Shown: in pieces, positions 3,786-30,656 of the stretch
Layout of the letters: each line of letters starts with the position of its first letter
Position numbering within the stretch: the stretch's first letter is position 1
Source: Candidatus Saccharimonadota bacterium
GTDB lineage: Bacteria > Patescibacteriota > Gracilibacteria > Absconditabacterales > Absconditicoccaceae
Direction: 5' to 3'
Length of the DNA stretch: 32,000 nucleotides
Assembly (NCBI GenBank): GCA_000503875.1
Contig: CP006913.1
Coordinates: 1,050,001 to 1,082,000 of the forward strand
Position numbers and translations under genes: made by a program
The notes under the pieces: model-generated
Seen by the model: only the letters and a program-made list of their open reading frames with translations
The model's database searches: none
What the model was told of the DNA's origin: nothing

Positions 3786-6700
3786 TTTTTATCAGAAAGA
3801 ACATAGATAATTTTTGTTTCGGCAAGTTTATCATGAAGTAACTGCCCATTTTCTCAAGTCCAAAACAAATAAAGATTATACACCCCTAATCATAAATAGA
3901 TAAAAAGTCAGAACATTGCTGCATATCATCAAATCAAAATAGACAACAATCATGTCAAAACCAATGGTCAAATTAATAACAAAAGAAACCAAAACATTCT
4001 TTTTGAAATATGTTTTTTGCTTAAATTTTTTCCATGTAAATCAACTATTTTCATATTCAATGCATCGTGATTTTGTGTCGCACCATTATTTATCCATTGC
4101 ATATATTGTGCTTTAAAATACCAAATAGCATATATTATCAAAAGCAATACAACAAATACAGCAAACCAAACAGATCATAAAAAGCCCAACTCAAAGAAAC
4201 CACTAAATAATATGAGGCCAATAAAAACAACTATTGGTCGCTTAATAAAATTAAAAATTGGAATCAATGCCCTCTTAACAAGCAACACAATTTTTTGTTT
4301 ATCATAGAACAAAGATGGTAGAGCAAATAAGTTTGAAAAAGAACCAAAAAGTAATCAAAATATAATTGTAATAGCCAAGGTTTTCCAAAAATCATCATTA
4401 ATTACTGATGCTAAACCAAGGGTTGCAGCCAAAACATTTACAATAATAGGCTGTAATCTTGATCTGCCAGCATATCTAATAGCTTTCAGAGGTTCCATAC
4501 CTATCCTAATATTCTCGTTTATTTTATAAAGACACAAAATAGAGTCGTTTACTATAATACCTGTCAAAGAAATAAATCAAATTCCAAACATAATACTATA
4601 AGCATTACCAGTTACAAACAATCAAATATTAGCTCCCAATAATCATACAGCAATACTATACATTATGATAGCTGGTTGGAGATAACTATTTAATTGGAAT
4701 ACCAAAATACCAAATATAGCAAAGATCGCTATTAAAAATGCCATCAACATAGCATTTATTAAATCCGCATTTTCTTGATTTTCACCAGACTGTTTATAGG
4801 TGATTCCATCAGGAAATATATACGAAGAAGCGTAGGTATCTAATTGTGATTGAATTTGATTTGATGTATATCATAACTCAAGATTAGCGTCTATAACAAT
4901 AGATATTTTTGTATCCTCTCTCGAAACTGCGCTTATAGCATTATCAAAAGAATAAGTAGATATATCGCCAAAATTAATTTGACCAGCTTGTGTATTTATA
5001 TTTATTTGATCTAAATCAGAAGGAGTCATTCATTTATCAAAACCATCATATTTTAATTTTATATTATGATTGTCTAGCTGTCATTTTAAAGTTCAAGCAT
5101 TTCGCCCATTAGTTAGTGCATATAAATCTAGATACAAAGACCCTGGCGTTAGTCATAACATAGAAAGCTTGGCAGCATCAAGAGTATAAACAAACTGACC
5201 GGGCGTTTCTTGAGAAGAATTTCAAACATTCTTGACACCAGGAATATCACGTAAATAGTTTTCAAAATCTCTAGATATCTCTATAAGATTTTGCATTTTT
5301 TTGTTTGAATCAGCAATAAGTTTAATTCAGACTTCTTTTGTTCCTGGAGGTCAATCTTTTAATGCAGCTATATTAATTCTAAGGCCGTACGATCTTAAAA
5401 AATTTAATTCTTTATCAAAATATTTTTCAAGAACAAATACATTTCTCATTCAATCTTTTTTTCTCTCTATCGGATCCAAAAATTCCAAATTAATAGACAC
5501 AGAATTTCCCATAACATTATAACTATATACTTTTATTTCAGGGGTATTTGCCAAGATATCATCTAAAGTTTGACCAGCTTTATTGGTAAAATATAGCTGT
5601 TTTTCCATTTCTTTGTTAGTTAATCCTTTCTTCCCAACAATAGACATTGTCATATATCAATTATCATTATCCGGAAAAAGTTTAAATCAAATAAGTGGAG
5701 CAAGGAACACAAAGCTAACCACCAATCCTATAAGCGGAATCATAACAGCCCAAAATCTTCTTTTAACATTTTCTGTTACCCAAGTAATTTTTTCAAAATA
5801 CCAATCATTTATTTTATTTAACATATTCTCACGAAAAGAAAGACTTTGATGATCTTTTTGTTCCTTATCCTTTCTATCATCCTCCAAAAGAGCAAGATCT
5901 TCTTTGTTCATATATTGTATTTGTTCTTCGTCATTTTCAAAGTAATTTTTTTTCTTGGCTATTTTGAAATAAAGGGCAGAATTTATAGTCAATCAAATAA
6001 ACAATGCTGCAAGTAAGGTAGAGAAAATAGTTATCGGAATATATGCCAAAAATTTTCCCATAATACCAGGTAACATAAGCATTGGTAAGAAAACAACAAC
6101 ATTGGTTATTGTCGCAGTGATTAATGGTCACTTATATTCTTTAACAGTTAATAAAATGGCATTTTTGGGATTGTATCAAAGTTTTATTTTTTCATTTGCT
6201 CACTCTATAATTACGATCGTAGTATCTACCGCTATAGAAAATGTAATCAAAAAACTAAAATTGGTCAAAAAATTTAACGTCATTCCCATCTGATCAAGGA
6301 CAATAAACGTTACCAACAATGCCAGAGGAAATGTAGTCGCTGCAATCAATGATTCTCTAATCCCAACCAAGACAAGCAAAGACAAAAATACCAAAACAAT
6401 ACTTTGCAAAAAATTATTTATAAGGCCATCATAATCTTTACTAATTAATTCTGACATATCGCTCGTATACAATACACTGAGTCAATCATAATCATATTTA
6501 TTCAATTCATCTTCCAATAATTCTTTAGCAGAAGTTGATGCGTCAAAAATATTCGCACCAGATTTTTTATTGAATTTAAGAGCAACATAATTTTGTCCAG
6601 TGATTTGATATGCTCATAATCTATAAAAATTATCATCATTTAATCTCTTTTCTATTTTTGCGATATCTTTGAGATAGATAAATCATTCACGTGTTGTAAT

Positions 6701-7510
6701 TGGTATATTTTTAAGCTGTTCTAATGTATCAAAAGATCCTTGAATTCTAAAATCGTAAGAAAATTGATCTATAACATGACTTCCCAATGGTTGATTCTTG
6801 TTCCACTGCTGCAATATTTGTCAAAGTTGCAAAAAATTCATTCCAAGTGCTTCTAATTTATCTTTATTTACAAGAACATAGACATCATATGTTTGACTAT
6901 TTCATCAAATTCAATCTACAGATTCCATACCAGCATATCATCAAACATCAATAGTGGTAATAGATCCTTTTCCAGCCAAATTTGATTTTATTCTTCTTGC
7001 TTTTTCTACAAGATATAATTGTGAATATATGTCTTTTTCTCCATATAATAAAACATTAAACATTAATTCATTATCTGATGATATTTCTGTGACAACAGGT
7101 TCTTCTGCATCACTAGGTAAATCTGCTTTATCAACAGAATCTTTGATATCTACAATAACATCATTGGTGTTCGCATCATTTTCTAATTCCAAAATAATAC
7201 TAGAAAATCATACAACACTTGTGGATGTTATTTTTTTAATTCATTGGATATCTTTTATTTCTTGTTCTATTTTTTCAGTAATCAAATTATCAATATCCTG
7301 TGGATTTACTCATTGATAAACTGTACCTACACTAATAATACCAAAGTCTATGTCTGGTGACGTTTCTTTGGGAATCTCATAGACAGAAAAAATTCATACA
7401 ACAATAATTAACGCAACCAAAACAAAAGTAAATCTCCATTTTTGTACCCAAAAACCAAAAAAACCAGACTCTATTTTTTTCTTGATTTTTTCTAAAGATA
7501 TTTTTTTCAT
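3782..7510 (-). CDS. RND-family efflux transporter permease (AcrB/HAE-like), 1242 aa
   Basis: Five track fragments (4355.., 5450.., 5687.., 6200.., 6941..) share one frame. N-terminal TM plus periplasmic loop motifs, and C-terminal GLLFGSFSNLFALPSLFY. The 3782-4354 stretch was checked for TAA/TAG and none was found. Confidence 0.85.
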
Positions 7511-7531
7511 AATCAAGTATGAAGGTAAAAT

Positions 7532-9274
7532 TTATTTTTTTATTTTAAGACTAAATTTAGAAGGATCAAAATAAGAAACATCGTTAGTAACAATATTTGC
7601 ACCATTATATAATCAAGAGAAAATTTCAATATAGGTATCCCAAACACGTCAAAGAATAACAGATTGTTTTTGAATACCAGTACCATCATATACTCGAACA
7701 AATCATTTGTTTTCTGTTACGGGTGTTATTACATTGATAGGAAGGACAGAAAATGGCAATGAAATAGGGAGTTTTACAGAAGCAATACCACCCAAAAGGG
7801 AAACAGAATCACCAAATCAAACAGTTACTTTATATAAGGTTGTCTTATCTGCTACAGAAGAAACAGATAAAATAGTTCCCGTAAAATCAAGTCATCAATA
7901 AGAAATTTTAGCAAGCTGTTTAAGTGAAAGATATCAACGTTCCTCAGCGGTTACATATACTTCAATAGTTTGTTTGTCGTTACTAGAAAGCGTAAAAAGA
8001 GGCGTTCCTGGACCAACCTCTTGTCAAATATCAACAAGAATATTTCAAATGACTCAATTAATTGGAGCTTTTACTGACAAATTATTAAATCTACTCAAAG
8101 CATCTTGATAAGAAAGATTTGCCTCACTGACAGCATTGTTTGCCATACTAATTTGTATGTCTTTGTTTTTCAACAAATTATCATAATTAGTTTCAGCGCT
8201 TTTTACACCAACTTCAGTAGAAAAAAGCGTATTATGAGAATTAATACGAGCTATATCATAGCCAATTTTTGCCTGTTCTTTTGTGACTTCAATTAAGTTT
8301 CATCAAGTACCTTGAGACAATAAAGCATTAACCTGTCTACGATATGCTGAAACACCCGTTTTTGCTCCCTGTAAAGATCACAACAAACCATCAACTTTTG
8401 CTCTATATCAATCAAGCATCCCCTGAGACAAAGATGATGTTACAATAGAATTTGTTATAACAATTTTCATTGTGTCCAACAATTGATTTGCTTTATTATA
8501 TCATTTTTCAATTATATCAACACCGCTTAAAACAACTTTTGAATCATTGGTATTTGAACTTAAATCTGATATTTTTTCTCTTAAATCATATAAATCTAGA
8601 ACATATTGCTTTGCGTTTACTTTTGTATCAACGTCATTTCATCACAAATAAGGTTCATAATATCTATTTATGTTCTCATATTCTTCAGTCACTCACAAAT
8701 AAGTATCCAATTGATTAAGAATGGTGTCAATTACATTTAATGCATTGTTTTTTTCCAAGTCAAATTGAAGATATATATTTTGAGATTGAGCTGTTGCACT
8801 AGAAAAATCAAGCTCTGCTTTTTTTAAAGATTGTTCTGTGGTTAATTTACCAACAGAGTAATTATTTTGAGCAACGTCCAAAGCAGTTGATACATCTGTT
8901 AAAGATTTATCAAGAGAGACTTTGGTTTGTTCTTTTTGTAAAGAAGCCCTATTAATAGCGTTTTTTGCCCTTTGAACTTGTAACCCATAATTAGCAACAG
9001 TGTCTGAAATTATTACCACTAACTGTTCACCAGATACTAAAGCGCCATCTTTCATTTCAATAGATTTTACTCTACCCGCAACTTGAGATGTCACAACAAT
9101 ATCTTGACTTCAAGCAACCCTACCAGGCTTAGAAATGAATATTTCTTGATCTAAATTATTAAATGACATTGTTTCAATAAAAAAATCTTGTTTATTGTCT
9201 TCGGTATTATTTGAACATCAAGCCAACAAACCAACAACTAATAATACAAATAGTCATATAAGATATTTTTTCAT
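7532..9274 (-). CDS. efflux adaptor (membrane fusion protein), lipoprotein
   Basis: Signal peptide with lipobox LLAGC, where the G is TGA. Lipoyl-like TSQVAGRVKSI plus a long coiled coil. Whole frame checked: only TGA interruptions. Confidence 0.75.
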
Positions 9275-9300
9275 ATAATCAAAAAAACAAAAATAAAGAA

Positions 9301-9540
9301 TTATTTTTTAATACGAGCTAATTCCTCTTGCATCATAGAGACAAAAGACTCCAAATCTGTAGATTTAATAAGTCAAATAGCCTTACCATGTTTCACAGTG
9401 ACTATCATACTATCACCAGGGTTAAGATCTATCATTTTTCTCACTTCATTGGGAATAACAATTTGTCCTTTTGCACCGACAACAACATTACCAAAAATTT
9501 GAATATTTGAACACTCTGGATGATTTGAATCTATCTGCAT
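9301..9540 (-). CDS. AbrB/MazE/SpoVT-family DNA-binding protein
   Basis: 79 aa. GQIVIPNEVRKMIDLNPGDSMIV is a typical SpoVT-AbrB looped-hinge-helix motif. Confidence 0.7.
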
Positions 9541-9605
9541 AATATATATAAAATAGATAAAGTATGATTTGTATAACTTTTCATACCTTTAATTCAAGAG
9601 AAATT

Positions 9606-10313
9606 TTATCTTTTTATCCAAAATAGACTATCTAGATGTAATGATGAAATACCAGAAATTTTTGATAATTCATATGTTTTTGCAATAATTTCTTTGTCAG
9701 AAAGCGCACCATAACTAATCAAAAATAACTTTCTAATTCTAGAATCTACAGGAATAGCGACATCCAAAGGATATGGAACAAATTTATCATAAACAACTCT
9801 TGCGGCATACCCAAACATTTTTACTGCAAAACAAAGAGTTTTAGACCAAATAGGTACTGACATAGCTTGTCATAAATCCTGCCACAAACCAACCATATCA
9901 TCATGATAAAGGTCCATCGATTTCAAAGAAAATTGAGATAGTTTTTTTAATCTAGCTACTTTAATATTGTATAACCTTTTATTGTATTTTGACGTGATCA
10001 TCAAATTATACCATCGATCAAAACTAGCTTTTCATTGTATAAAATCAAGTAACAATATATCAAAATCAGACTTTAATTTTTCTGCAAATTCCTCCCATCG
10101 TAACTCGCCACTTCACGCTATTTGATAACTTATCAACGCATTGTATATTACCGCTCTCAAAAACACTTCTTGAACTACCTTATTATCAACATCACCAAAA
10201 TCACGATTTTTAATCAATTCCCAAGCTGACCTTAATGCCAAAAATTGCCTATCAGATTCCTCTATAGCAACAATTTCTTCAAATGAATAATCAGCGATAA
10301 GCTTGGTTAGCAT
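9606..10313 (-). CDS. AGOG-type N-glycosylase/DNA lyase (8-oxoguanine)
   Basis: Two track ORFs joined through TGAs. NALISYQIAGSGE, KTLCFAVKMFGYAARVVYDKFVPYPLDVAIPVD and LHLDSLFW match the archaeal-type AGOG family as I remember it. Confidence 0.8.
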
Positions 10314-10375
10314 AGGACAAAAAAATCTCTAAACAATCAGAGTATAGAGATTTAGCAAACAAGGTAAATACTTTT

Positions 10376-12049
10376 TTATTGAAGTTGATCAAATACTTTT
10401 TTTTCTGTAGATTTCATAAACATTTGTTTAATAGCGTCAACCAATGACAAAGAAGATAAATATACATAACGATTGATGTGTAAAATATCTGATATATTAA
10501 ATTTTTTCATTTTTTCTTTTCCCATTTCTTTGCTTAAATTTTCCAAAAATACTTTGTCTGCGAGCTTAATATCAGCAACAACCTCAAGCATTTTTGGTAG
10601 AACTTCATCAGTAGTTTTTTCATCAATAACCTCAGAAATAATTTTATAAAGACGAACTACCATAGACCTAAAAAGTTCATATTGTTTATATAGCCATGGT
10701 GAAGGTGTTTCTTCCAAAAATCTAATATTATGAACAATATCTTTCATATATTTTGCAGTTGCAACTGCCAAAGAAATAGCCGAATATAATTCATCAATGG
10801 TATCAATATCACTACTCTTGGTTGTGTGTCTTTTTGTGTGAGAAGCAAAAGACACCAAAGACGCTTCTATCATTTTTATTGTCAAATATTCTTGTTCCAA
10901 AATAGCTTCATCGACAGCTTTTTGGTGAGCCAAAATTCCATCTACATCCAAGTGCGATTTCAACAAAATTTTCTCATCAACAGACCAAATATGTAAAACG
11001 TAGACAAATGTTTTTTTCAACAATTTGACGGTATCTTTTTTGATAGCAATAATCGCTGCCTCAGGAACGGCTGGATCTACTTGCTCCAATGACAATCAAA
11101 GCAACGTTTCTTTATCCGGAAATAATCGCTGCAAAAAACGAGTAAAATATCATACAAAAGGGGCCATCAAAAGAACTCAAATAATTTTAAATCAGATAGC
11201 AAACATCGATAACCCAAAAACTACATCAGCAAAGACATTGTCCAATAAGACAACTATCCATGGCAAAAACAACAATCACAAAACAACAGAAAAGAGATTG
11301 AAAAACACATGACTAAATGCCACCTGCTTTTTTAAAACATTAGGACCCAAAGATCACAAGACAACCGTCAATGTTGTCCCCAAAAAAGCACCCATAATCA
11401 AAGGAATTCCCATGCGATAGTCGACAATTCCAGAGCTCGCTGCTGTCAAAACCAAAATAGTCGTTGCAGAGCTTGATTGCATCAAAACAGTTACCAAAAA
11501 ACCTATCCCAAAATAAGCAATGCTCGACAGTGACACATATTGACCAAAATCAACTGATGCGGACAACACCATCATACTATCTTTCATAAATCAAAGCCCC
11601 AGAAAGATAAGTCCAAGTCAAACAAAGGCTCTAGAAATATTTTTGATTTTTCCATATCTCGAAAAAATAAGAAACGCAAAGCCAGCAATCCCTATCATAG
11701 GCAAAGCGATGCTCGACAATGAAAATTTAAGTCCCAAATTTCCCAACACAATATCCATAAGCGGAGCTCCTATATTAGTTCCCAAAATAATTCCAATTGC
11801 ATTTTCTAATCAAATAATTCCTGCACCCACAAAAGAAACTGCTATCAAAGAAACTACCGCACTACTTTGCAAAATAGACGTAGCAAAAAAACCAGTAGAA
11901 ATAGATGAAATCAGGTTTTTCGTTGCTGTTCTCAAAAGATTTTTTAAATTTTTAGTCACCAAAAAACTTATAGCTTCCTCAAAAGCCATAGTTCCAAATA
12001 AGAACATTCCAAGTCATCATACTAACAATCAAATTTGTTCCCAAGTCAT
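10376..12049 (-). CDS. Na/Pi cotransporter family protein with PhoU-like C-terminal domain
   Basis: Track fragments 10376.., 11354.. and 11810.. are in one frame. Two QSSSA repeats (LQSSAVVS, MQSSSATT) and a helical C-terminal half. Confidence 0.8.
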
Positions 12050-12158
12050 AGAATATAGATCAAGTAAATCTGTTAACTATACTATAATTATACCCAAGAA
12101 CGTTTTTTTTGCAAAAAAAAGGACGTAAAATACGCCCTCTTACAATAACCAAAATATA

Positions 12159-12545
12159 TTAACTTTTCTTTGGCATAAGCTTATGAAGATATGCAGAATA
12201 TGCCATATCAACAGCTTTTTGTAATTTTTGTTTGTCGGATGGTGTTTTCAAAATTTTTGCCAACATTTCTTGAAGAATGTCCAGGCCCTGTTTCATCATT
12301 TGTTGTCTTTCTTGAGGAGAAAGATCAAGAACAATGGCAACTTTTTTATTTTTGCGTTTTTGCCATTCAATAATGGCACGAAAAATAAATCCTCTTATTG
12401 CCATATCGCTCATGTCTACAAACGGTGACATTATCCGAGAAATACCATCCATCAACTCCCTATATTCTTTGGGAAGCTCAACCTTTTCGTACTCAGCGGC
12501 GGCATTCTGAACTTCTACCGCATTAAAACCAATTTTTGTTATCAT
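12159..12545 (-). CDS. hypothetical protein (128 aa)
   Basis: Intact ORF with ATG start and no in-frame TGA. No motif recognised. Confidence 0.45.
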   Translation of the reverse strand: MITKIGFNAVEVQNAAAEYEKVELPKEYRELMDGISRIMSPFVDMSDMAIRGFIFRAIIEWQKRKNKKVAIVLDLSPQERQQMMKQGLDILQEMLAKILKTPSDKQKLQKAVDMAYSAYLHKLMPKKS

Positions 12546-12611
12546 ATATTTAGATTTAATTGTGTTTTGAAAATTATTATAACAAATTCTTGTTAATTGT
12601 CAATTTAATTA

Positions 12612-12860
12612 TTATTTCCTCAATACATACAAACAAAAGAATCTGAATATTTGTCTATACTGTCTAATTTTATATAACGATCTACCTTTATTTTTCATAT
12701 TGGCTAGAAATTCACGAAACATTTGCTGATTAAACATCTCCATTGATCCATGACACCAAAGAAAAAACAATCCAAGATAAATACAATATCTTTCAACTTT
12801 TTTCTCACTATAGCCCCTAAGCAACAATTCTTGTTTGAATTGCATCATAAGTTTCGCCAT
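12612..12860 (-). pseudogene. remnant of a second tyrosine recombinase (N-terminal SAM-like domain only)
   Basis: MAKLMMQFKQELLLRGYSEKKVERYCIYL...IRQYRQIFRFFCLYVL aligns by pattern with the N-terminus of the neighbouring integrase (LSRELQQRNYSPRTVEIYSNCL...INLYKEVIKFFCSQIL). It stops after about 82 aa and has no catalytic domain. Confidence 0.55.
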
Positions 12861-12900
12861 AATACCGGACATAAAAGATAAATTTAAACAAACCAAGGAA

Positions 12901-13002
12901 GAGAAAGATTTCCTTATCAAAGGACCGATACATCCTCTCCCTCATGTTCGCCGAAATTCTAACAATCCCAAAAAAGAAAAAAACTGACAAAAGTAGGACA
13001 AA
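12901..13002. repeat. 102-bp direct repeat, copy 1
   Basis: Matches 14423-14524. The core CTC(C)CTCATGTTCGCCGAAATTCTA[A/G]CAAT[C/T]CCA[A/G]AAAAGAAAAAAACTGACAAAA[G/A]TAGGACAAA is near-identical. It ends exactly at the integrase stop codon. Confidence 0.85.
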
Positions 13003-13815
13003 CTATAATGGACTCTGAATGCTCTGTAAATTATGTGTCGAAACCTGGGTATATATCTGCGTCGTTTTGATCGACGAATGTCCAAGTAATTTCTGAATAT
13101 AACGAATATCTGTCCCATTTTCCAACAAATGCGTCGCAAAACTATGACGCAAGGAATGAAATGACGCCTTTTTCTGGACACCCGACCTGAGCAAGGCATC
13201 CTGAAAAATATGCTGTGCGGTTCTCGAATGTAAACCCCCGCCTTGCTCAGAATGAAATAACGGATCCTCATAACTCTTGCTTTCCATCAACATTCTTATT
13301 TCTCCCATAATTTTCTCTGGCAAAATCGTTATCCTATCTTTCTGTCCTTTGGCTGATTTAATATGGATAATCTTTTTATCGAGATTTATATCTCCTACTG
13401 CCAAATGGATCACTTCCGAAACTCTCAAACCCGCACCATATGCCAACGCCAATAAAGTTTTATGCTTCATATTGGACACACTATCCAGAATTTTTTGAAT
13501 CTCCTGACGAGACAAAATAACGGGCAATGTGCGTGGCTGCTTAGAAAGCTTAATATCCAAACGGATAGACAATTTCAAAATCTGACTACAAAAGAATTTA
13601 ATCACTTCTTTGTACAAATTTATGGTCTTCGGCGCTCTACCTTGAGATTCCAAATAAAGAATAAAATCAATGACCTTTTCACGATTGATCTTCGACACAT
13701 CATACTCCAACCGCTTCAAAAAAGACCTCAAACAATTACTATAAATTTCCACCGTCCTCGGACTATAATTTCTCTGCTGAAGCTCCCTAGAAAGCTGACT
13801 TACATAATCTTGCAT
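13003..13815 (-). CDS. tyrosine-type site-specific recombinase (XerC/D-sized, IntI-like C-terminus)
   Basis: 270 aa, no TGA. Catalytic boxes AYGAGLRVSE, KGQKDR, HSLRHSFATHLL and LLGHSSIKTTQIYTQV. Ends in QSPL. Confidence 0.9.
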   Translation of the reverse strand: MQDYVSQLSRELQQRNYSPRTVEIYSNCLRSFLKRLEYDVSKINREKVIDFILYLESQGRAPKTINLYKEVIKFFCSQILKLSIRLDIKLSKQPRTLPVILSRQEIQKILDSVSNMKHKTLLALAYGAGLRVSEVIHLAVGDINLDKKIIHIKSAKGQKDRITILPEKIMGEIRMLMESKSYEDPLFHSEQGGGLHSRTAQHIFQDALLRSGVQKKASFHSLRHSFATHLLENGTDIRYIQKLLGHSSIKTTQIYTQVSTHNLQSIQSPL

Positions 13816-13839
13816 GATAACTATTTAAATAATAAAAAC

Positions 13840-13867
13840 TTGATTTTTAAAGATTATTTATTATAAT
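13840..13867 (+). promoter_or_regulatory. candidate sigma70-type promoter (TTGATT-16 nt-TATAAT) facing away from the recombinase
   Basis: Hexamers at 13840-13845 and 13862-13867. AT-rich background makes chance matches likely. Confidence 0.3.
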
Positions 13868-13890
13868 ACAACCATCATGCTTACTTCTTG

Positions 13891-14015
13891 TAGGCCCCAC
13901 CCTATCAATAGACAGATAGGGTAAACTATGCCTTCGGGCTCCTACCCCGCAAAACACTGCGGGGGAAAACTATCAAGAATCTTCTGGGAAATACATCAAT
14001 CTCAGAAGTTTTTTT
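13891..14015 (+). ncRNA. candidate structured RNA or DNA element (GC-rich, four helices, cUUCGg tetraloop)
   Basis: Hairpins: CCCTATC/GATAGGG (13900-13921), GCC-TTCG-GGC (13930-13939), closing TAGG/CCTA (13891-94/13941-44), CCCCGCA/TGCGGGG (13945-13964). These are followed by CTTCTG/CAGAAG plus a T7 run (13981-14015). Confidence 0.35.
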
Positions 14016-14395
14016 ATATGTTCGAATTCTTCCTTTGACATCAAACCTATTTTAGTGAAAAATCTTTGAGTATCAAAAGTTCTTCATTGACTATTAACGA
14101 TAAAAGATTTTCTTCTGAATTTTACGCTTTGGAAGGCTAAATAATATTTTTCACTATTTTATTTAGTAGTCATAGGCAGAGAAAAATACATATTTCAAAT
14201 CACACTTACAACCAAAACAGGCCTAAAAAATCAATCCTTACCAAAAAGTTCTCTTCAAACATTAGCTCAAATCTTAATATATCGAATTTCTCTTGGTTTG
14301 GGATAAATAATTTTATGAGATCTATTAAGCTTCTTTTTTTCTGAATTCCAAAGATCAAATGTTTTATCATTCAAACAAAATTCTTGCATTACCAT
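13970..14395 (-). pseudogene. MazF/PemK-like toxin interrupted by an in-frame TAA
   Basis: With TGA=Gly: ...WNSEKKKLNRSHKIIYPKPREIRYIKIGANVGRELFGKDGFFRPVLVVSVIGNMYFSLPMTTK-TAA(14159-14161)-NSEKYYLAFQSVKFRRKSFIVNSQGRTFDTQRFFTKIGLMSKEEFEHIKKLL. The PemK-type pattern continues in the same frame after the stop. Confidence 0.6.
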
Positions 14396-14422
14396 AAATA
14401 ATACATATAAAAAATCAAAAAA

Positions 14423-14524
14423 GAGAAAGACACTCATATCAAAAGAGCCAAAACCGTCTCTCCTCATGTTCGCCGAAATTCTAGCAATTCCAGAAAAGAA
14501 AAAAACTGACAAAAATAGGACAAA
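14423..14524. repeat. 102-bp direct repeat, copy 2
   Basis: See copy 1. On the minus strand both copies contain an extended -10-like TGnTAGAAT (copy 2 at 14478-14486), upstream of the toxin here and of the recombinase remnant in copy 1. Confidence 0.85.
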
Positions 14525-14620
14525 TATCCCACTATCACAAAACCATCCATTTTACACCCATTTCACGCCACACAACGTCACAGCAACAACCCCTTTGACC
14601 ACTTATGCGCCACTCTCATG

Positions 14621-14656
14621 TCGCACAAAACCTAGTTGTCGGACATCTACTTTTTG
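14621..14656 (+). other. half-site resembling the 3' side of the hairpin family (candidate primary, attI-like recombination site)
   Basis: CTAG|TTGTCGGACAT compared with ACG|TTGTCTGTCAT (A) and ACG|TTGTATGACAT (B). There is no hairpin to its left. It is preceded by a CA-rich tract with CGCCAC direct repeats at 14566 and 14608. Confidence 0.4.
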
Positions 14657-14789
14657 TTTCAAGCGGAACCTTTTTGATTTTTTCAGAGTGGAGGTAAAAA
14701 CTAGAAAATAGGGATTGACTTTCCATAGTAGATATATATGTACCTTACAGGTAATAAAATATAAAACTAAATAATGGAGAAAATATATT

Positions 14790-15065
14790 ATGGAAATTTT
14801 AATAAAAGGTACTAGCGTGAAATTAATCCAACAATGGATTTCTACAATGTTAAACGACATTAAAAATAATAAAATTTACTGCTCTACAAAAGAGCGTAAA
14901 TTATTCGCTGTAAGCGAAATCAACAGAACTAGATTACAAATAATGAGAGACATTATGCCTACAGAAAGTGACTTGCCTACTTATACTGATACCGAAAGCA
15001 TGAAAATGGATCAAGAAGCACTAAAAAAGTATTTATTAGACATGAAAACATTTTTGGAAAGTTAA
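14790..15065 (+). CDS. hypothetical protein (91 aa), unit 0
   Basis: ATG preceded by GGAG, intact ORF, followed by a strong intrinsic terminator. Confidence 0.5.
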   Translation: MEILIKGTSVKLIQQWISTMLNDIKNNKIYCSTKERKLFAVSEINRTRLQIMRDIMPTESDLPTYTDTESMKMDQEALKKYLLDMKTFLES

Positions 15066-15086
15066 CAATCATTGTGAAATTTGTTT

Positions 15087-15114
15087 AAGCCCGCTTTTTT
15101 CGGGCTTTTTTTTA
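15087..15114 (+). terminator. rho-independent terminator
   Basis: AAGCCCG-CTTTTTT-CGGGCTT stem-loop followed by a T run. Confidence 0.75.
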
Positions 15115-15191
15115 TACTTTTAATTTCCTCCATAATTCATATATTTCCTTTAGTAAACATTTCCACTCAATAAACAAAAAGACATAAACAA

Positions 15192-15279
15192 CAAAAAGAT
15201 AGATCATCCAACAACAGGCTCTGCTGCACATACATTTGTACGTCCAGCTAGAGCCAGACGTTGTCTGTCATATCCCTTA
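15192..15279 (+). repeat. hairpin site A (attC-like)
   Basis: ACAAC-a-GGCTCT-GCTG-[cACATACAtttgTACGTC]-CAGC-t-AGAGCC-agac-G|TTGT. Core 15211-15264. Confidence 0.7.
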
Positions 15280-15447
15280 TAACTAAAAAGTCCTTTCTGA
15301 AAGAAATTTGGAGGGGATTTTTTATTTTAATTTAGATTTTTTATAAAAAAAAGAAAAACTTGTAAGGAAATATAGAATTTCTTTAAATTATTTAAATTTC
15401 TATTTACACTAAAAAAACAAAAACATATAAATCTTAATAAAAAATTA

Positions 15448-16518
15448 TTATTTTATAAGAAACCTTAATTTTTCAATAATTTTTTCAATTAATGGTTCGG
15501 CACTTTGACCATTTAAAAGAGGCAAAAAAGACTTTATTGTATTATTGAGTAATACTTTATCTTCATTATTTAAAACAAGTTTATTAGAAGAATTAGTTAT
15601 TCTTCATAAAACCAAATTCGCAAATATTTTAATCATTAATTTTTCAAAAAAACTACGTAATTGAATTTCTAGTTGATCTCCTTCTAATGTTCGTATATTG
15701 TTTGGAATGTCAAGTTTTTCTTTAACTATATATTCAAGTTCTTCAATAGATCAATTTAATCATATAATTCAAATTGTTTCGTCATTAGAATAATCTTCTG
15801 AATCATAAAAATTCCAATCTTTAAAATTTTTTATATCATTCAACAAATTTAATTCTCTAGTGGTAAGATTTCCATAACAAGATTTTTCTTGTTTTAATGG
15901 AGCGTCATATTCTTGACTAAAATATTGTTTTTTTTTAGCATAAGATAAAGCATCTTTCTTTTCAAAAAAGAATGCACTTCAAATTAAATCTTCTGACACG
16001 AACAGCGATCAATATCATATTGACATATTTTCTTCATAAATTCAATAAGGATTCCCAGCATAAAACCGACCCTTTTTTTGTTTTAATTCATTAATCATCT
16101 CATCCTTATATTCACCAGGTTCTTCTAGACCAAGCTCAATCCAAGAGTCTTGAATAATGATTTCTCAACCATTTTTCTTTTCATATGGAATATTAATATA
16201 TGCTATTTCATAAACAGGATATCAATAACGAATATCTTTTCTATTTCTTTTTCCTTCTTCAGTTATTTTAATTATATCATTAATTTTTTCTATAATCATT
16301 TTTCTATCTCAGATACCATGAATAGTAACTTCTTTTTTTCATGAAGCAAAAGAACTATTAAATAATTTTTTTTCAATTATTCTTGCTGTATTTCATTTTT
16401 CTTGCAAATCATTAATTATATTCTGTTTAGTTTCCCCTTCTACGACTTTTTTTCATTTTAAAACAAATCATTGTTCTTGTAAAGATTGATTGTTTCTTTG
16501 TTTAATTTTATCAGTCAT
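15448..16518 (-). CDS. hypothetical protein (356 aa with TGA=Gly), unit 1, inverted relative to the other units
   Basis: Frame checked line by line: 15 in-frame TGA, no TAA/TAG. ATG at 16516-16518, TAA at 15448-15450. Absent from the standard-code track. Confidence 0.65.
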
Positions 16519-16547
16519 AATAATTTATAAAAAAATAAACATACCTG

Positions 16548-16575
16548 ATTATACTCCCCCCCCTAGATTTGTCAA
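16548..16575 (-). promoter_or_regulatory. consensus promoter TTGACA-16 nt-TATAAT with a G8 tract in the spacer
   Basis: Minus strand reads TTGACAaatctaGGGGGGGGagTATAAT. The -10 lies 29 nt upstream of the unit-1 ATG. C8 on the plus strand at 16556-16563. Confidence 0.6.
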
Positions 16576-16730
16576 ATTTTTTAGGATTTTTTTTATTTAG
16601 GTGGGAAATGGGGTGTTTACTGTGTTTTTGAAAAAAGTCTAAAAAAAAGAAATTTTCTTTAATTTTTTGGTTGATTTATCTTATTTTTATCTTAATTTAA
16701 TTTAGAAAAAATCCCCTCCAAGTAATTAAG

Positions 16731-16811
16731 TAAGGGATACAAACAGACAACACGCACTATCCTACATACAAGCTACAGTCGGATCAGTGCGAAACGTTGT
16801 ATGACATAGCC
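16731..16811 (+). repeat. hairpin site B (attC-like)
   Basis: ACAAC-a-CGCACT-ATCC-[tACATACAagcTACaGTC]-GGAT-c-AGTGCG-aaac-G|TTGT. Core 16747-16800. Confidence 0.7.
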
Positions 16812-16885
16812 TAATTGGATTAAGAAATTAAGGAGGAGCAATTTTAATTTAGATTAGATTTTTTTAGATTTTAGAACCAAGAAAT

Positions 16886-16913
16886 TTGCTAAATTCAAAT
16901 AGATGATTATAAT
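16886..16913 (+). promoter_or_regulatory. candidate promoter TTGCTA-16 nt-TATAAT for the unit-2 ORF
   Basis: Hexamers at 16886-16891 and 16908-16913, 30 nt upstream of the ATG at 16943. Confidence 0.4.
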
Positions 16914-16942
16914 TTAAGTATTTAAATTATAATATAAATTAA

Positions 16943-17644
16943 ATGTCTTCATTAAATGCTTATAACTATGATGAGAATATTGATACAATAGAATCTGATA
17001 AATCTGATATTTTAGAAAAAAATATATATTCGGAAGAAAAAGCACAAGAATTTAAAAAATGATTAGATGCAGAAAAAGATACAACAAGAAGAAAACAAAA
17101 CAAGATAGTAAACCAAACAATAAATGAATTTATTTTGGCTTCTTATCCATTGAATGAATGATGAGAAGAACATTTAAAGAAAAAGTTTTTAAAAATAGGA
17201 GATTGTTATGAAAATTGAGTAAAAGCAGTTGAAATTACAAAATGAGTAAATAATTGAGCAGATCTTATGTGAATATATCAAAAAAAAATTAAAGAAAACG
17301 AAGAAAACATTAAAACGACAGACAAAGAAGAAAAAATACAAATGAATTTTAATAAATTAGTTGAAACATGTAAATGATTAGGAAAAAGAAATAAAGAACA
17401 TATCTTCGCACTTATTAGTACAGATTGATCAATACATTTAGTAAACGACATAGACACTGGACATTATATAATACCCAAATGATTAATTGAAAATTGAGAT
17501 ATATGAAGCTTGGCTAAACCAAATAAAATAGATCCAAACAAAATGGAACGATGAGGTGATCCATTTAATTTAGAAGACCAAGTCTTAGGTGATAAATTAT
17601 TAGAAGTATGAAAAAATGAATCTCTAACAAATAGTAAAAATTAA
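16943..17644 (+). CDS. hypothetical protein (233 aa with TGA=Gly), unit 2
   Basis: ATG to TAA with about 14 in-frame TGA and no TAA/TAG. Absent from the standard-code track. Confidence 0.6.
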
Positions 17645-17700
17645 TTTAGATTTTTTTAATTAAATTTAGAAGAGCCTTTCCTTTTAGTAATTATAGTTTT

Positions 17701-17772
17701 AATTACGGACTACGAACCTACAACAGCCGATACACGACATACACATTACGGTCGTACATCGGCGAACGTTGT
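17701..17772 (+). repeat. hairpin site C (attC-like)
   Basis: ACAAC-a-GCCGAT-ac-ACGAC-[ATACAcatTACg]-GTCGT-ac-ATCGGC-gaac-G|TTGT. Core 17720-17772. Confidence 0.7.
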
Positions 17773-17825
17773 ACGAAAACTCTTGTAGTCTTAGCAGTTG
17801 TACGAAAACTCTTGTAGTCTTAGCA
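17768..17825 (+). repeat. perfect tandem duplication, 2 x 29 bp (GTTGTACGAAAACTCTTGTAGTCTTAGCA)
   Basis: Copies at 17768-17796 and 17797-17825. It begins exactly at the conserved G|TTGT of site C. Confidence 0.9.
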
Positions 17826-17877
17826 AATGAATATTAAATTTACGAAAAGATGTGATTTTATCTTCTCAGCATAAAAA

Positions 17878-18807
17878 ATGGAAATACTTCCACAAAACTT
17901 AAAAATCAATCATAAGAAGACAGCAATGATTGCAGAGAAAATATCTGAGACAAAACAACTTGAAATAATATGAAAGAAAACACAGAATCCAGAAATAAAT
18001 ATTTGGTGATACGATCGACTTATTCATAAAATGGAACCTCATAGAATCACTTTTTTCGATGATGAAGAAAGTACCATTGAAATCAAAATTTGAAGATGAG
18101 ACTATTTGCAGTTTAATAACGAGAAAATTTGGGATGATAAACTCAAAGAAGAAAAAATTAAAGGTGTAAAGACATGAGATAAATCTGTTGAAAGAGCCGA
18201 AATAGAGGGGAAAGAACATTTTCTACTAGGAAAAAGTTACAGGTTCAATTTTGAATTTTTTATACCTGAAAATTTCCCAATAATAGACAATAGACTGGTT
18301 ATTTGACAATGGAAACAACAATTTGAAGAATGAACAAAAAACAACGCTCTCATTGCCCAAAGATTTAGGAACTGAAAATACACAATATCATTTAATCCAA
18401 CCTGAGATCCAAAGGGAAATTGATGAAACGTTAATATATGTGAATTAAATGCTAAAGACGTTCTATGAAAACGAATCCAGACAGAATATGAGATAAGATT
18501 TTCAGAAGACGAAGATGGCTACATCAAAATACGACATAATTGAAATTTTCTTTGGGAATATCATGGTAAAGTAAGTTCAAGTAGTAAAGAATATCCAGTT
18601 TGAAAATACTATAAAGACAACTTTTTCTTCAAATTTTGACTATACAAAGATAGCTACGAAAAAAGACTATTAGAACTAGAAAACGAAGAACAAACAGACG
18701 AAAACCATAAGAAAATTGAAGCTCTAAAAAAAGCAATAGACGATGAAAATAACTGAAAACTTATGACCGTTTATTTCAAAAACTATAAAGTGGAAGAAAT
18801 AGGATAA
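17878..18807 (+). CDS. hypothetical protein (309 aa with TGA=Gly), unit 3
   Basis: ATG at 17878, TAA at 18805-18807, about 16 in-frame TGA. The track shows only a spurious antisense ORF here. Confidence 0.6.
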
Positions 18808-18854
18808 AATTAGCTCTTTTATTTAACTATTCATGTTAAAAATAGATAATCAGA

Positions 18855-18919
18855 ACAACTACAAAAGACTTTCACTTTGCTCGCAGTCAATACACGACAT
18901 ATACATCGGCAAACGTTAT
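18855..18919 (+). repeat. degenerate or chimeric hairpin site D
   Basis: The left part is ACAAC-t-ACAAAA-GACT-[loop]-AGTC. The right part, ATACACGACATATAC-ATCGGC-aaac-G|TTAT, copies the right arm of site C but has no partner for ATCGGC. Confidence 0.5.
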
Positions 18920-18959: not shown

Positions 18960-19457
18960 ATAGAACTCTTAAAAGAAATTACTGATACAAAATTTCCTGA
19001 AACGGAATTAGGTATAAAAATCAGGGAAGCTTCAAGAGCTGTAATTTTTGATGATAATGGACAGATTCCTTTATTGTTTGTTTCGAAACATAATTACCAT
19101 AAATTACCTGGTGGTGGTTTTGAAATAGGAGAAAACAAAAAAGAAGCATTGATAAGAGAAGCTAAAGAAGAAGTCTGATGTGAAATAGAAGTAATTGATG
19201 AAATTTGAAAAATTATTGAATTTCGTTCTAAAAGAGATCTTAAACAGACTTCATATTGTTATTTATGTAAAGTAGTTTCAAAAGGAAATCCTGATTTCAC
19301 AAAAAAAGAATTAGATGAATGATTTAAAATTATTTGGGTATCTCTTGATAAAGCTATATATTTAATCGAAAACGATAAACCAGATTATTATGACAATTTC
19401 TTTATTCAAAAAAGAGACATCGTTTTTTTAAAAAAAGCAAAACAAATAAAAAAATAA
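18960..19457 (+). CDS. Nudix hydrolase
   Basis: Nudix box GGGFEIGENKKEALIREAKEEVGCE, with the conserved G of EEXG encoded by TGA (19176-19178). The frame opens at 18951, but there is no ATG/GTG/TTG before the conserved core, so the start is uncertain. Confidence 0.7.
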
Positions 19458-19562
19458 CTGAATATTTAACGCTTATGCTCTACAAGATAGATAACAGGAA
19501 TTATCTGAATATTTAATGATGAGAAACCGACATTATTCTTCTTTTATTTACTAATACACCTT

Positions 19563-30582: not shown

Positions 30583-30656
30583 AGCGGATAACGGGACTCG
30601 AACCCGTACGAACAGAGCTGAAGTCTGCTATGCTACACCAATTACATCATATCCGC
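30583..30656 (-). tRNA. tRNA-Gly (anticodon UCA), the UGA decoder
   Basis: Acceptor GCGGATA/TATCCGC (G1-C72, C2-G71, G3-C70), discriminator U73, anticodon loop CTTCAGC, T-arm ACGGG-TTCGAGT-CCCGT, normal 74-nt size. Confidence 0.8.

Follow-up and report, generated by a model that had tools for sequence, protein, structure and literature searches.

Putative attC-like hairpins in an integron-like gene-cassette platform of a bacterium that probably reads TGA as glycine

Background

The 32,000-nucleotide (nt) stretch of contig CP006913.1 analysed here (assembly GCA_000503875.1, positions 1,050,001 to 1,082,000; hereafter the window, in whose coordinates all positions are given) derives from an absconditabacterial genome and encodes a tyrosine recombinase, upstream of which three imperfect hairpins, A, B and C, lie on the opposite strand. 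The question raised by this locus is what these hairpins are for. A reading made from the letters of the DNA alone (the sequence-only reading) had claimed that selection acts on their fold and had likened them to the attC sites of integrons, genetic platforms whose defining integrase has an extra domain for reading the bases that flip out of the folded attC site. On the comparative evidence presented below, the hairpins appear to serve an integron-like platform of gene cassettes as its attC-like recombination sites, in a bacterium in which TGA probably encodes glycine, a reading to which a probability of roughly 0.8 is given. The platform is not, however, a canonical integron: its recombinase is XerA-like and lacks the insertion specific to the integron integrase IntI, the spacer of its sites is 1 x 4 nt, and its cassettes appear to carry their own promoters.

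Architecture of the hairpins

Hairpins A (15211-15264), B (16747-16800) and C (17720-17772) read on the plus strand as ACAAC A GGCTCT GCTG ... CAGC T AGAGCC AGAC GTTGT, ACAAC A CGCACT ATCC ... GGAT C AGTGCG AAAC GTTGT and ACAAC A GCCGAT AC ACGAC ... GTCGT AC ATCGGC GAAC GTTGT, respectively, and score 71.9, 73.1 and 66.8 bits against a covariance model derived from the three sites. Folding of both strands with DNA parameters reproduced the common architecture described in the sequence-only reading, which comprises an outer stem of 5 base pairs (bp), an unpaired A facing four unpaired nt (AGAC, AAAC and GAAC), a 6-bp stem, an inner stem and a loop. The 6-bp stems (GGCTCT/AGAGCC, CGCACT/AGTGCG and GCCGAT/ATCGGC) are, as had been claimed, perfectly complementary and unrelated in sequence. 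The single-base bulge described between the two stems is present in A (T) and B (C), but site C has a two-by-two AC/AC internal loop instead, which becomes G-T wobble pairs on the minus strand. Folding energies on the minus strand are -15.9, -10.8 and -12.1 kcal/mol for A, B and C, as opposed to -9.2, -7.7 and -9.9 kcal/mol on the plus strand, the minus strand folding better at all three sites because the A-C mismatches of the plus strand are G-T pairs on the minus strand.

The pattern ACAAC-N35-60-GTTGT occurs five times in the window where 0.47 matches are expected, a number reached in 0 of 100 shuffled sequences. Three of the matches are the hairpins themselves, while the other two overlap (14572/14586-14639) and coincide with an attI-like site that shows no hairpin-type fold (z = -0.2). 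Searching the window for the apical motif alone, with mismatches allowed, gave seven matches against 6.6 expected, which is no better than chance, and Rfam at gathering thresholds reported only tRNAs in the window. A perfect 29-nt tandem duplication (17768-17825, plus strand), possibly derived from slippage or aberrant recombination, begins at the GTTGT of hairpin C, and an analogous 22-nt tandem duplication of the 5' arm begins at the ACAAC of a site (4664-4737) in the related metagenome locus L026.

Relatives in other loci and covariation of the stems

Homologues of the recombinase, of 270-273 amino acids (aa) and annotated from Gracilibacteria and Absconditabacteria, are abundant, and the contigs carrying them (designated L025, L026 and so on) were scanned for hairpins. 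At least 14 other metagenome loci have relatives of the hairpins, which lie upstream of the homologous recombinase and nearly always on the opposite strand. The covariance model built from A, B and C recovered 13 further sites in L026, L027, L029, L036 and L043, all of which lie upstream of a recombinase homologue and on the opposite strand, as in the window. Sites in L044, L067 and L102 came from a scanner based on geometry only (AACA and NNACGTT bordering two complementary 6-nt arms), and a looser one (AAC-N-6 bp...6 bp-N4-GTT) added L063, L065, L078, L095 and L107, where the recombinases are about 40% identical. In the looser scan, the 189 kb lying upstream on the opposite strand contained 24 matches where 3.1 were expected (Poisson p = 4e-14), and the 991 kb of the other three combinations of strand and side contained 16. 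As neither strand nor position was a search criterion, this association is independent of the stem requirement.

For the analysis of covariation, 25 sites from nine loci were aligned by fixed offsets from AACA and ACGTT, which are invariant in 25/25. Both-side changes occur at all six pairs of the 6-bp helix, 91% of the cells are paired, and the observed score was reached in 0/500 shuffles; when the partner was slid by one to three columns as a control, pairing fell to 23-36%. In the alignment fitted to the covariance model (16 matches), 12 of 17 pairs show both-side changes, with 90% pairing and the score reached in 5/500 shuffles. The alignment of further copies that had been proposed as a check supports the claim of selection on the fold. 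Although the pairing percentages are inflated by search tools that reward the stem, the diversity of stem sequences across the family (GGCTCT, CGCACT, GCCGAT, CATCTA, CAGTAT, CTGGAT and others) is free of that bias.

The conserved apical motif that had been described, ACATACA-N3-4-TAC-N0-1-GTC, is present in all three window sites but is complete in only 5/25 sites of the family, across which just the elements at the loop base, ACAT...[G/A]TC, persist, with CAT at the 5' base in 18/25 sites and [G/A]TC at the 3' base in 21/25. The motif of site C, ACGACAT...GTCGT, contains the inverted pair ACGACA/TGTCG that is also found in the attI-like site, and GTCG precedes GTT by 17-19 nt in the hairpins and by 16 nt in attI. 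The ACAT/GTC motif and its attI counterpart may thus constitute a shared protein-binding determinant. Long-loop hairpins in L044, L063, L065, L067, L095 and L107, whose recombinases are approximately 40-51% identical, share the element CCACCCA(T/A)ATTT and form a second sub-family with a conserved loop element of its own. A search of 185,579 species genomes with the pattern ACAAC-N12-13-ACATACA-N22-27-ACGTTGT returned 21 single matches in unrelated taxa, which are attributed to chance since none folds into the architecture; the pattern was too specific, as the loop motif is not general.

An attI-like site and the position of the crossover

Between the recombinase gene and the first hairpin lies an attI-like site (approximately 14525-14639, plus strand), in which a palindrome is followed by CTA|GTTGT, with the crossover G|TT inferred at 14635-14637. 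Its consensus is ...ATG(a/c)CGACA-ctcta-TGTCGCACA(g/a)AA(g/c)(c/g)TA|GTT, the palindrome having arms of 13-14 nt around CTCTA and the mapped crossover falling 16 nt to its right. The conserved sequence ...ATGaCGACActctaTGTCGCACAgAAgcTA|GTT is shared by 12 loci in constant orientation, upstream of the recombinase and on the opposite strand in every case, while the sequence to the right of GTT differs from locus to locus. Three to five copies of ACGACA/TGTCGC occur in attI, at fixed distances of about -105, -70, -58, -27 and -16 from GTT.

Several junctions indicate where recombination takes place. L029 and L030 are syntenic with window positions 4548-14637 at 75-88% nucleotide identity, the synteny ending at the attI GTT, and the 9 kb of L029/L030 to the right of it gave no match to the window. 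In L031, attI is followed by GTTGTCTGTCATATCCCTTATA... (GTTGTCTGTCATATCCCTTATAGC...), the start of cassette 1 of the window, which there follows hairpin A; the two are 91% identical over 91 nt, with the identity setting in exactly at GTTGT. The cassette adjoining attI in L029 likewise has the same start as the cassette that follows hairpin 4878 in L036. The contigs L025 and L030 end 13-16 nt past the attI GTT, as expected if the population is polymorphic there. Taken together, the end of synteny, the L031 and L029/L036 junctions and the contig ends locate the crossover at GTT or immediately to its left, where each hairpin has its right end, and reveal that cassettes are found at different junctions from one genome to another. 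Neither the loop nor the attI palindrome is a tenable position for the crossover, as the L arms of each site would then stem from different cassettes and would not pair.

Gene cassettes between the hairpins

The crossover points delimit plus-strand cassettes of diverse content. Cassette 0 (14636-15260) contains an open reading frame (ORF) at 14790-15065 (91 aa) and a terminator at 15087-15107, and ends in hairpin A. Cassette 1 (15261-16796), ending in hairpin B, carries its ORF on the minus strand (15448-16518, 356 aa), while cassette 2 (16797-17768) has an ORF at 16943-17644 (233 aa). The ORF of cassette 3 (17769-18915), at 17878-18807 (309 aa), was considered as a second integrase and rejected, its product being polysaccharide-lyase-like. 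This cassette ends in a decayed site, D (18884-18919, plus strand), which is related to hairpin C but has lost 13 nt of the apical region and has a broken 5' arm, while ATCGGC AAAC GTTAT is retained. A second decayed site, E (19491-19535, plus strand), assigned with lower confidence, follows a NUDIX ORF (19074-19457) and has an intact 5' arm, ATAAC A GGAATT ATCTGA, and a lost 3' arm. Given D and E beyond C, the array comprises at least five cassettes.

Cassette starts are complementary to the flank preceding the hairpin at the end of the same cassette. The mean score across 18 cassettes is 6.1, which exceeds both the 3.0 of all other pairings (p = 2e-4) and the 2.6 obtained when the left and right flanks of a hairpin are compared with each other (p = 0.002). 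In cassette 0, the start GTTGTCGGACATCTACTTTTTGTT and the left flank of hairpin A are complementary with a score of 14, and the ends of cassette 1 form the inverted repeat GTTGTCTGTCATATCCC / GGGATACAAACAGACAAC. Pairing in L043 likewise runs across cassettes, from GTTAG to the following CTAAC and from GTTGT to the following ACAAC, and is not seen between the ends of any one site. The conserved cassette start ACGTTGTCTGTCATATCCC had no matches in viral contigs.

Consensus scans predict a sigma-70-type promoter for the reversed ORF of cassette 1 (12/12, 16575->16548) and a promoter-like site in cassette 2 (10/12, 16886-16913), so that hairpin B lies between the divergent promoter-like sites of these two cassettes. 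ORFs are co-oriented in 4/5 cases in the window and in 5/10 in L026. In addition, plus-oriented copies of TTAATTTAGA lie close to both ends of cassettes 1 and 2 (15330, 16697, 16847, 17643 and 17663) and close to a cassette start in L043, and cassette 1 contains a second inverted pair, GGAGGGGATTTTTT (15310) and AAAAAATCCCCTCC (16709). A homologous segment of about 900 nt (71% identity) is present in the arrays of L029 (3008-3905 from attI) and L043 (5806-6703 from attI), in opposite orientation relative to attI and at different positions.

A XerA-like recombinase

The recombinase gene (13003-13815, minus strand) is transcribed away from the cassette array and codes for a Xer-related, XerA-like tyrosine recombinase of 270 aa with the Pfam domains Phage_integrase and Phage_int_SAM_4. 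The protein scores 227.8 bits against the NCBIfam model NF040815 (recomb_XerA_Arch; cut-off 220), which places it in the XerA family and whose assigned name is 'tyrosine recombinase/integron integrase'. Against the integron-integrase model TIGR02249 it scores 193.6, under the cut-off of 265 and in two stretches. The best match among solved structures is XerA of Pyrococcus (4a8e, E = 9e-43). Vibrio IntI4 (2a3v) also aligns in two stretches, but its residues 206-250 have no counterpart in the query, the gap falling between query residues 200 and 204. By this alignment the recombinase lacks the IntI-specific insertion. The additional domain of IntI, around patch III, is treated as a defining and necessary feature of integron integrases (PMC9668308; PMC8138268).

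Between attI and the recombinase gene is a gene for a PemK/MazF-like toxin (13970-14395, minus strand; Pfam PF02452, 31.7 bits), which is interrupted in the window by an in-frame stop near 14159 and is intact in L043 (PF02452, 44 bits), L031, L032 and L029. The same interval contains an NYN-domain gene in L025 and is reduced to 172 nt in L026, L027 and L036. The recombinase gene is bracketed by a direct repeat of 63-116 nt (12887-13002 and 14409-14524; 94% identity over 63 nt; spacing 1522 nt), the first copy of which begins directly after the recombinase stop codon while the second covers the 5' end of the PemK-like gene, and this repeat also occurs in L028, L029 and L030. Downstream of the recombinase, a short ORF (12612-12880, minus strand, about 86 aa) encodes an N-terminal SAM-like recombinase domain only (PF13495, 29.5 bits) and shows 83% nucleotide identity to its counterpart in L029; it may represent a gene fragment or a small accessory DNA-binding protein.

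Strand preference and asymmetry of the sites

Across 26 sites, with one tie, the minus strand is the more stable in 21 of the 25 remaining comparisons (sign test, p = 9e-4). Every one of the 25 aligned sites has a spacer of 1 nt (A) against 4 nt (RRAC), and the extra base that separates the L stem from the inner stem sits on the plus-strand 3' arm in 17/25 sites and on the 5' arm in 0/25. Canonical attC sites show a bottom-strand folding bias, have 5-6 unpaired spacer bases per arm, and carry their extrahelical bases opposite the AAC triplet in the recombined bottom strand (PMC5027507). With the polarity fixed by attI, the bottom strand of the sites described here is the minus strand of the window, and the extra bases (GTYY and one more) lie on its 5' arm, together with ACAA|C. 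The placement of the extra bases on the plus-strand 3' arm in the sequence-only reading was therefore correct, but by attI polarity the arrangement is the mirror image of that in canonical attC sites, not a match to it. On this evidence the array polarity appears canonical and the asymmetry code mirrored, which would fit a recombinase without the domain that reads canonical extrahelical bases. The plus strand, which has the geometry of the canonical bottom strand, was rejected as the recombined strand by reasoning from spacer geometry and the attI junctions, as insertion at attI through it would, on the chromosomal top strand, leave the 4-nt spacer in the 5' arm, opposite to its position in the sites.

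Weighing the integron-like reading

The reading of the hairpins as attC-like sites draws on comparison between loci, namely on the hairpin family and its covariation, constant position and strand, the conserved attI-like site, the GTT crossover, cassette-end complementarity and array hypervariability. The resemblance to attC that had been noted extends to their setting, as the sites lie in an array comprising recombinase, attI and cassettes. Shared with integrons, and with sedentary chromosomal integrons in particular, are a recombinase transcribed away from an adjacent attI with repeated binding-type motifs, a G|TT crossover, insertion of cassettes at attI next to the recombinase gene, and an array whose cassettes all terminate in imperfect hairpins bearing paired L boxes and the conserved triplets 5'-AAC...GTT-3'. 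In both, it is the bottom strand that folds more stably, array content differs wholly between related genomes, and a toxin gene forms part of the platform. A cassette end complementary to its own start corresponds to the R'' rule of integrons, although the complementarity of the R box amounts to 10-27 nt in the cassettes described here and to 7 nt in integrons. Canonical attC sites are 57-141 nt long with a variable terminal structure, a property shared by the present family, in which sites measure 52-134 nt and loops 12-95 nt.

A true, merely sequence-divergent IntI/attC system, working as class 1 or Vibrio integrons do, would account for the recombinase-attI-cassette layout, the AAC/GTT triplets, the imperfect hairpins with variable loops and the folding advantage of the bottom strand, and both the name of NF040815 and the 193.6 bits against TIGR02249 point in that direction. 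Such a system is nevertheless improbable, given that the TIGR02249 match is split and under its cut-off, that the defining domain represented by IntI4 residues 206-250 is absent, that the spacer is 1 x 4 nt rather than 5-6 nt per arm, that the extra bases of the bottom strand lie on the same arm as AAC, and that the cassettes carry predicted promoters of their own. In integrons, most cassettes lack a promoter, share one orientation and are expressed from Pc, whereas ORF orientation is mixed in the array described here. The locus differs further from integrons in the semi-conserved ACAT...GTC motif at the loop base, common to hairpins and attI, and in its host, a candidate-phyla bacterium with genetic code 25.

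Several points weigh against the interpretation of the hairpins as attC-like sites. The added family members came from tools that reward a stem, a selection bias that leaves strand and position as the independent evidence. The recombinase is without the IntI insertion that contacts extrahelical bases and has been reported as necessary for integron recombination, and hairpin recombination by the window recombinase is therefore hypothetical. This recombinase family may also, or instead, provide the chromosome-dimer Xer of the lineage, as assumed for the 'Cand' subgroup of Xer-related recombinases, which are taken to act as Xer (PMC8138268). Cassette ORFs face both ways and have their own, predicted promoters, the asymmetry of the sites is the mirror of that of canonical attC, and some 'cassettes' are 2.5-4.5 kb long with several genes, so that sites may have been missed or lost.

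The nearest systems with a recombinase of this type are those based on Xer. Resolution of chromosome dimers by Xer employs a single 28-30-bp dif site (11-6/8-11) at the replication terminus, and in the integration of CTX phage by XerCD a folded attP hairpin is recombined with dif, one strand being exchanged and replication resolving the junction. In common with these systems, including archaeal XerA, the locus has a Xer-type recombinase without extra domain, proposed here to act on a folded single-stranded hairpin that mimics the core site. It differs from both in its covarying family of sites with AAC/GTT triplets and in its dedicated attI beside the recombinase gene, and from CTX phage in being a chromosomal array of many cassettes rather than a phage genome integrating at dif. 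The pdif modules of Acinetobacter plasmids are likewise discrete gene modules bounded by sites for a Xer-type recombinase, but pdif sites are 28-bp duplexes of alternating orientation with no covarying hairpin, whereas all sites of the array described here share one orientation and a conserved fold.

Module exchange of this double-stranded kind, as in pdif modules or integrative mobile elements exploiting Xer (IMEX), with the sites recognised as duplexes and their hairpin potential incidental or serving another purpose, ranks just after a divergent integron and is likewise unlikely. It would suit the XerA-like recombinase, the dif-like palindrome in attI (13-14-nt arms around CTCTA) and the right half of the hairpins, in which the position of GTCG before GTT is much like that of attI TGTCGC at -16. 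The 6-bp stems, however, covary freely without sequence conservation, which indicates base pairing and not the reading of a duplex by a protein; moreover, the sites do not alternate in orientation as pdif sites do, one strand has a consistent folding advantage, and the crossover falls outside the palindrome and the stems.

A role of the hairpins as RNA, in termination, processing or stability at gene 3' ends, was also considered, as many of them lie just downstream of a co-oriented ORF and covariation by itself cannot separate RNA from DNA folding. Intrinsic terminators consist of a G+C-rich stem followed by a T run at gene 3' ends. The possibility that the elements are simple terminators, raised in the sequence-only reading, is contradicted by the lack of a T tract after any site and by a terminator scan that called none of A, B and C, while cassette 0 has a separate terminator and the promoters on either side of B both direct transcription away from it. 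Co-oriented ORFs are antisense to the strand that folds better, Rfam gave no hairpin matches, and the attI junctions, array hypervariability and cassette-end complementarity would be left unexplained, making an RNA role very unlikely. Least credible is that the units are small transposons or miniature inverted-repeat transposable elements inserting at GTT, with the hairpins as junction artefacts, as the inverted repeats of 10-27 nt at cassette ends and the second inverted pair of cassette 1 are outweighed by the absence of a transposase gene and target-site duplication, by a hairpin core (the L stems) outside the inverted repeat of either neighbouring unit, and by the strict tie to one recombinase and one attI in a single orientation.

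A possible mechanism and its implications

If the hairpins are attC-like sites, the adjacent recombinase would be the catalyst, acting on single-stranded folded DNA of the bottom strand, the minus strand of the window. By analogy with integrons and with XerCD on the folded single strand of CTX phage, an excised cassette, or the array during replication, would expose this strand, which would fold into an R stem, a 4x1 internal loop, the 6-bp L stem, an extra base, the inner stem and the variable loop. The recombinase would bind the folded site and cut 5'-ACAA|C-3', which is complementary to the G|TTGT with which the hairpin ends on the right, whereupon a single strand would be exchanged with attI or another hairpin and the junction would be resolved by replication.

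A broader proposal, for which the odds appear about even, is that such loci represent a separate, domain-less integron lineage that is widespread in candidate-phyla bacteria and in which a plain Xer-type recombinase both captures and shuffles cassettes through folded single-stranded attC-like sites with a mirrored code (4x1 spacer, extra base on the cleaved arm). The IntI-specific domain would in that case be dispensable for the recombination of hairpin cassettes, and the platform would either resemble an ancestral stage on the path from Xer to integrons or have arrived at the same solution independently. The searchable literature yielded nothing on integrons in Gracilibacteria, Patescibacteria or the candidate phyla radiation, nor on integron-like systems without the IntI domain. 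On the comparative evidence, a complete platform of integrase, attI and hairpin-ended cassettes appears to work with a domain-less recombinase and reversed site asymmetry. If confirmed, this would extend gene capture of the integron type to ultra-small, uncultured bacteria with a reassigned stop codon. To our knowledge, integron search tools require the IntI-specific domain, and present finders would miss the whole class, reporting at best clusters of sites without an integrase. The system would likewise offer a natural test case for the evolution of strand choice and hairpin recognition from Xer recombinases and, as a compact structure-specific recombination system, could be a useful tool.

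Genetic code and strand composition

The window as a whole has a G+C content of 30%. Throughout it TGA is a sense codon that reads sensibly as glycine, restoring, for example, the lipobox LAGC and the P-loop of adenylate kinase, and a tRNA of normal length (30583-30656, 74 nt) has the anticodon UCA, although ARAGORN labels it 'SeC'. Both features suggest that the window employs genetic code 25, the type of Gracilibacteria and Absconditabacteria, with TGA probably encoding glycine. ORF calling with the standard table 11 splits up most of the window genes.

The GC skew of the plus strand is negative along the whole window and the majority of genes are on the minus strand, from which it follows that the parental minus strand would be the lagging-strand template, exposed as single-stranded DNA. 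This is the same strand on which the hairpins fold better.

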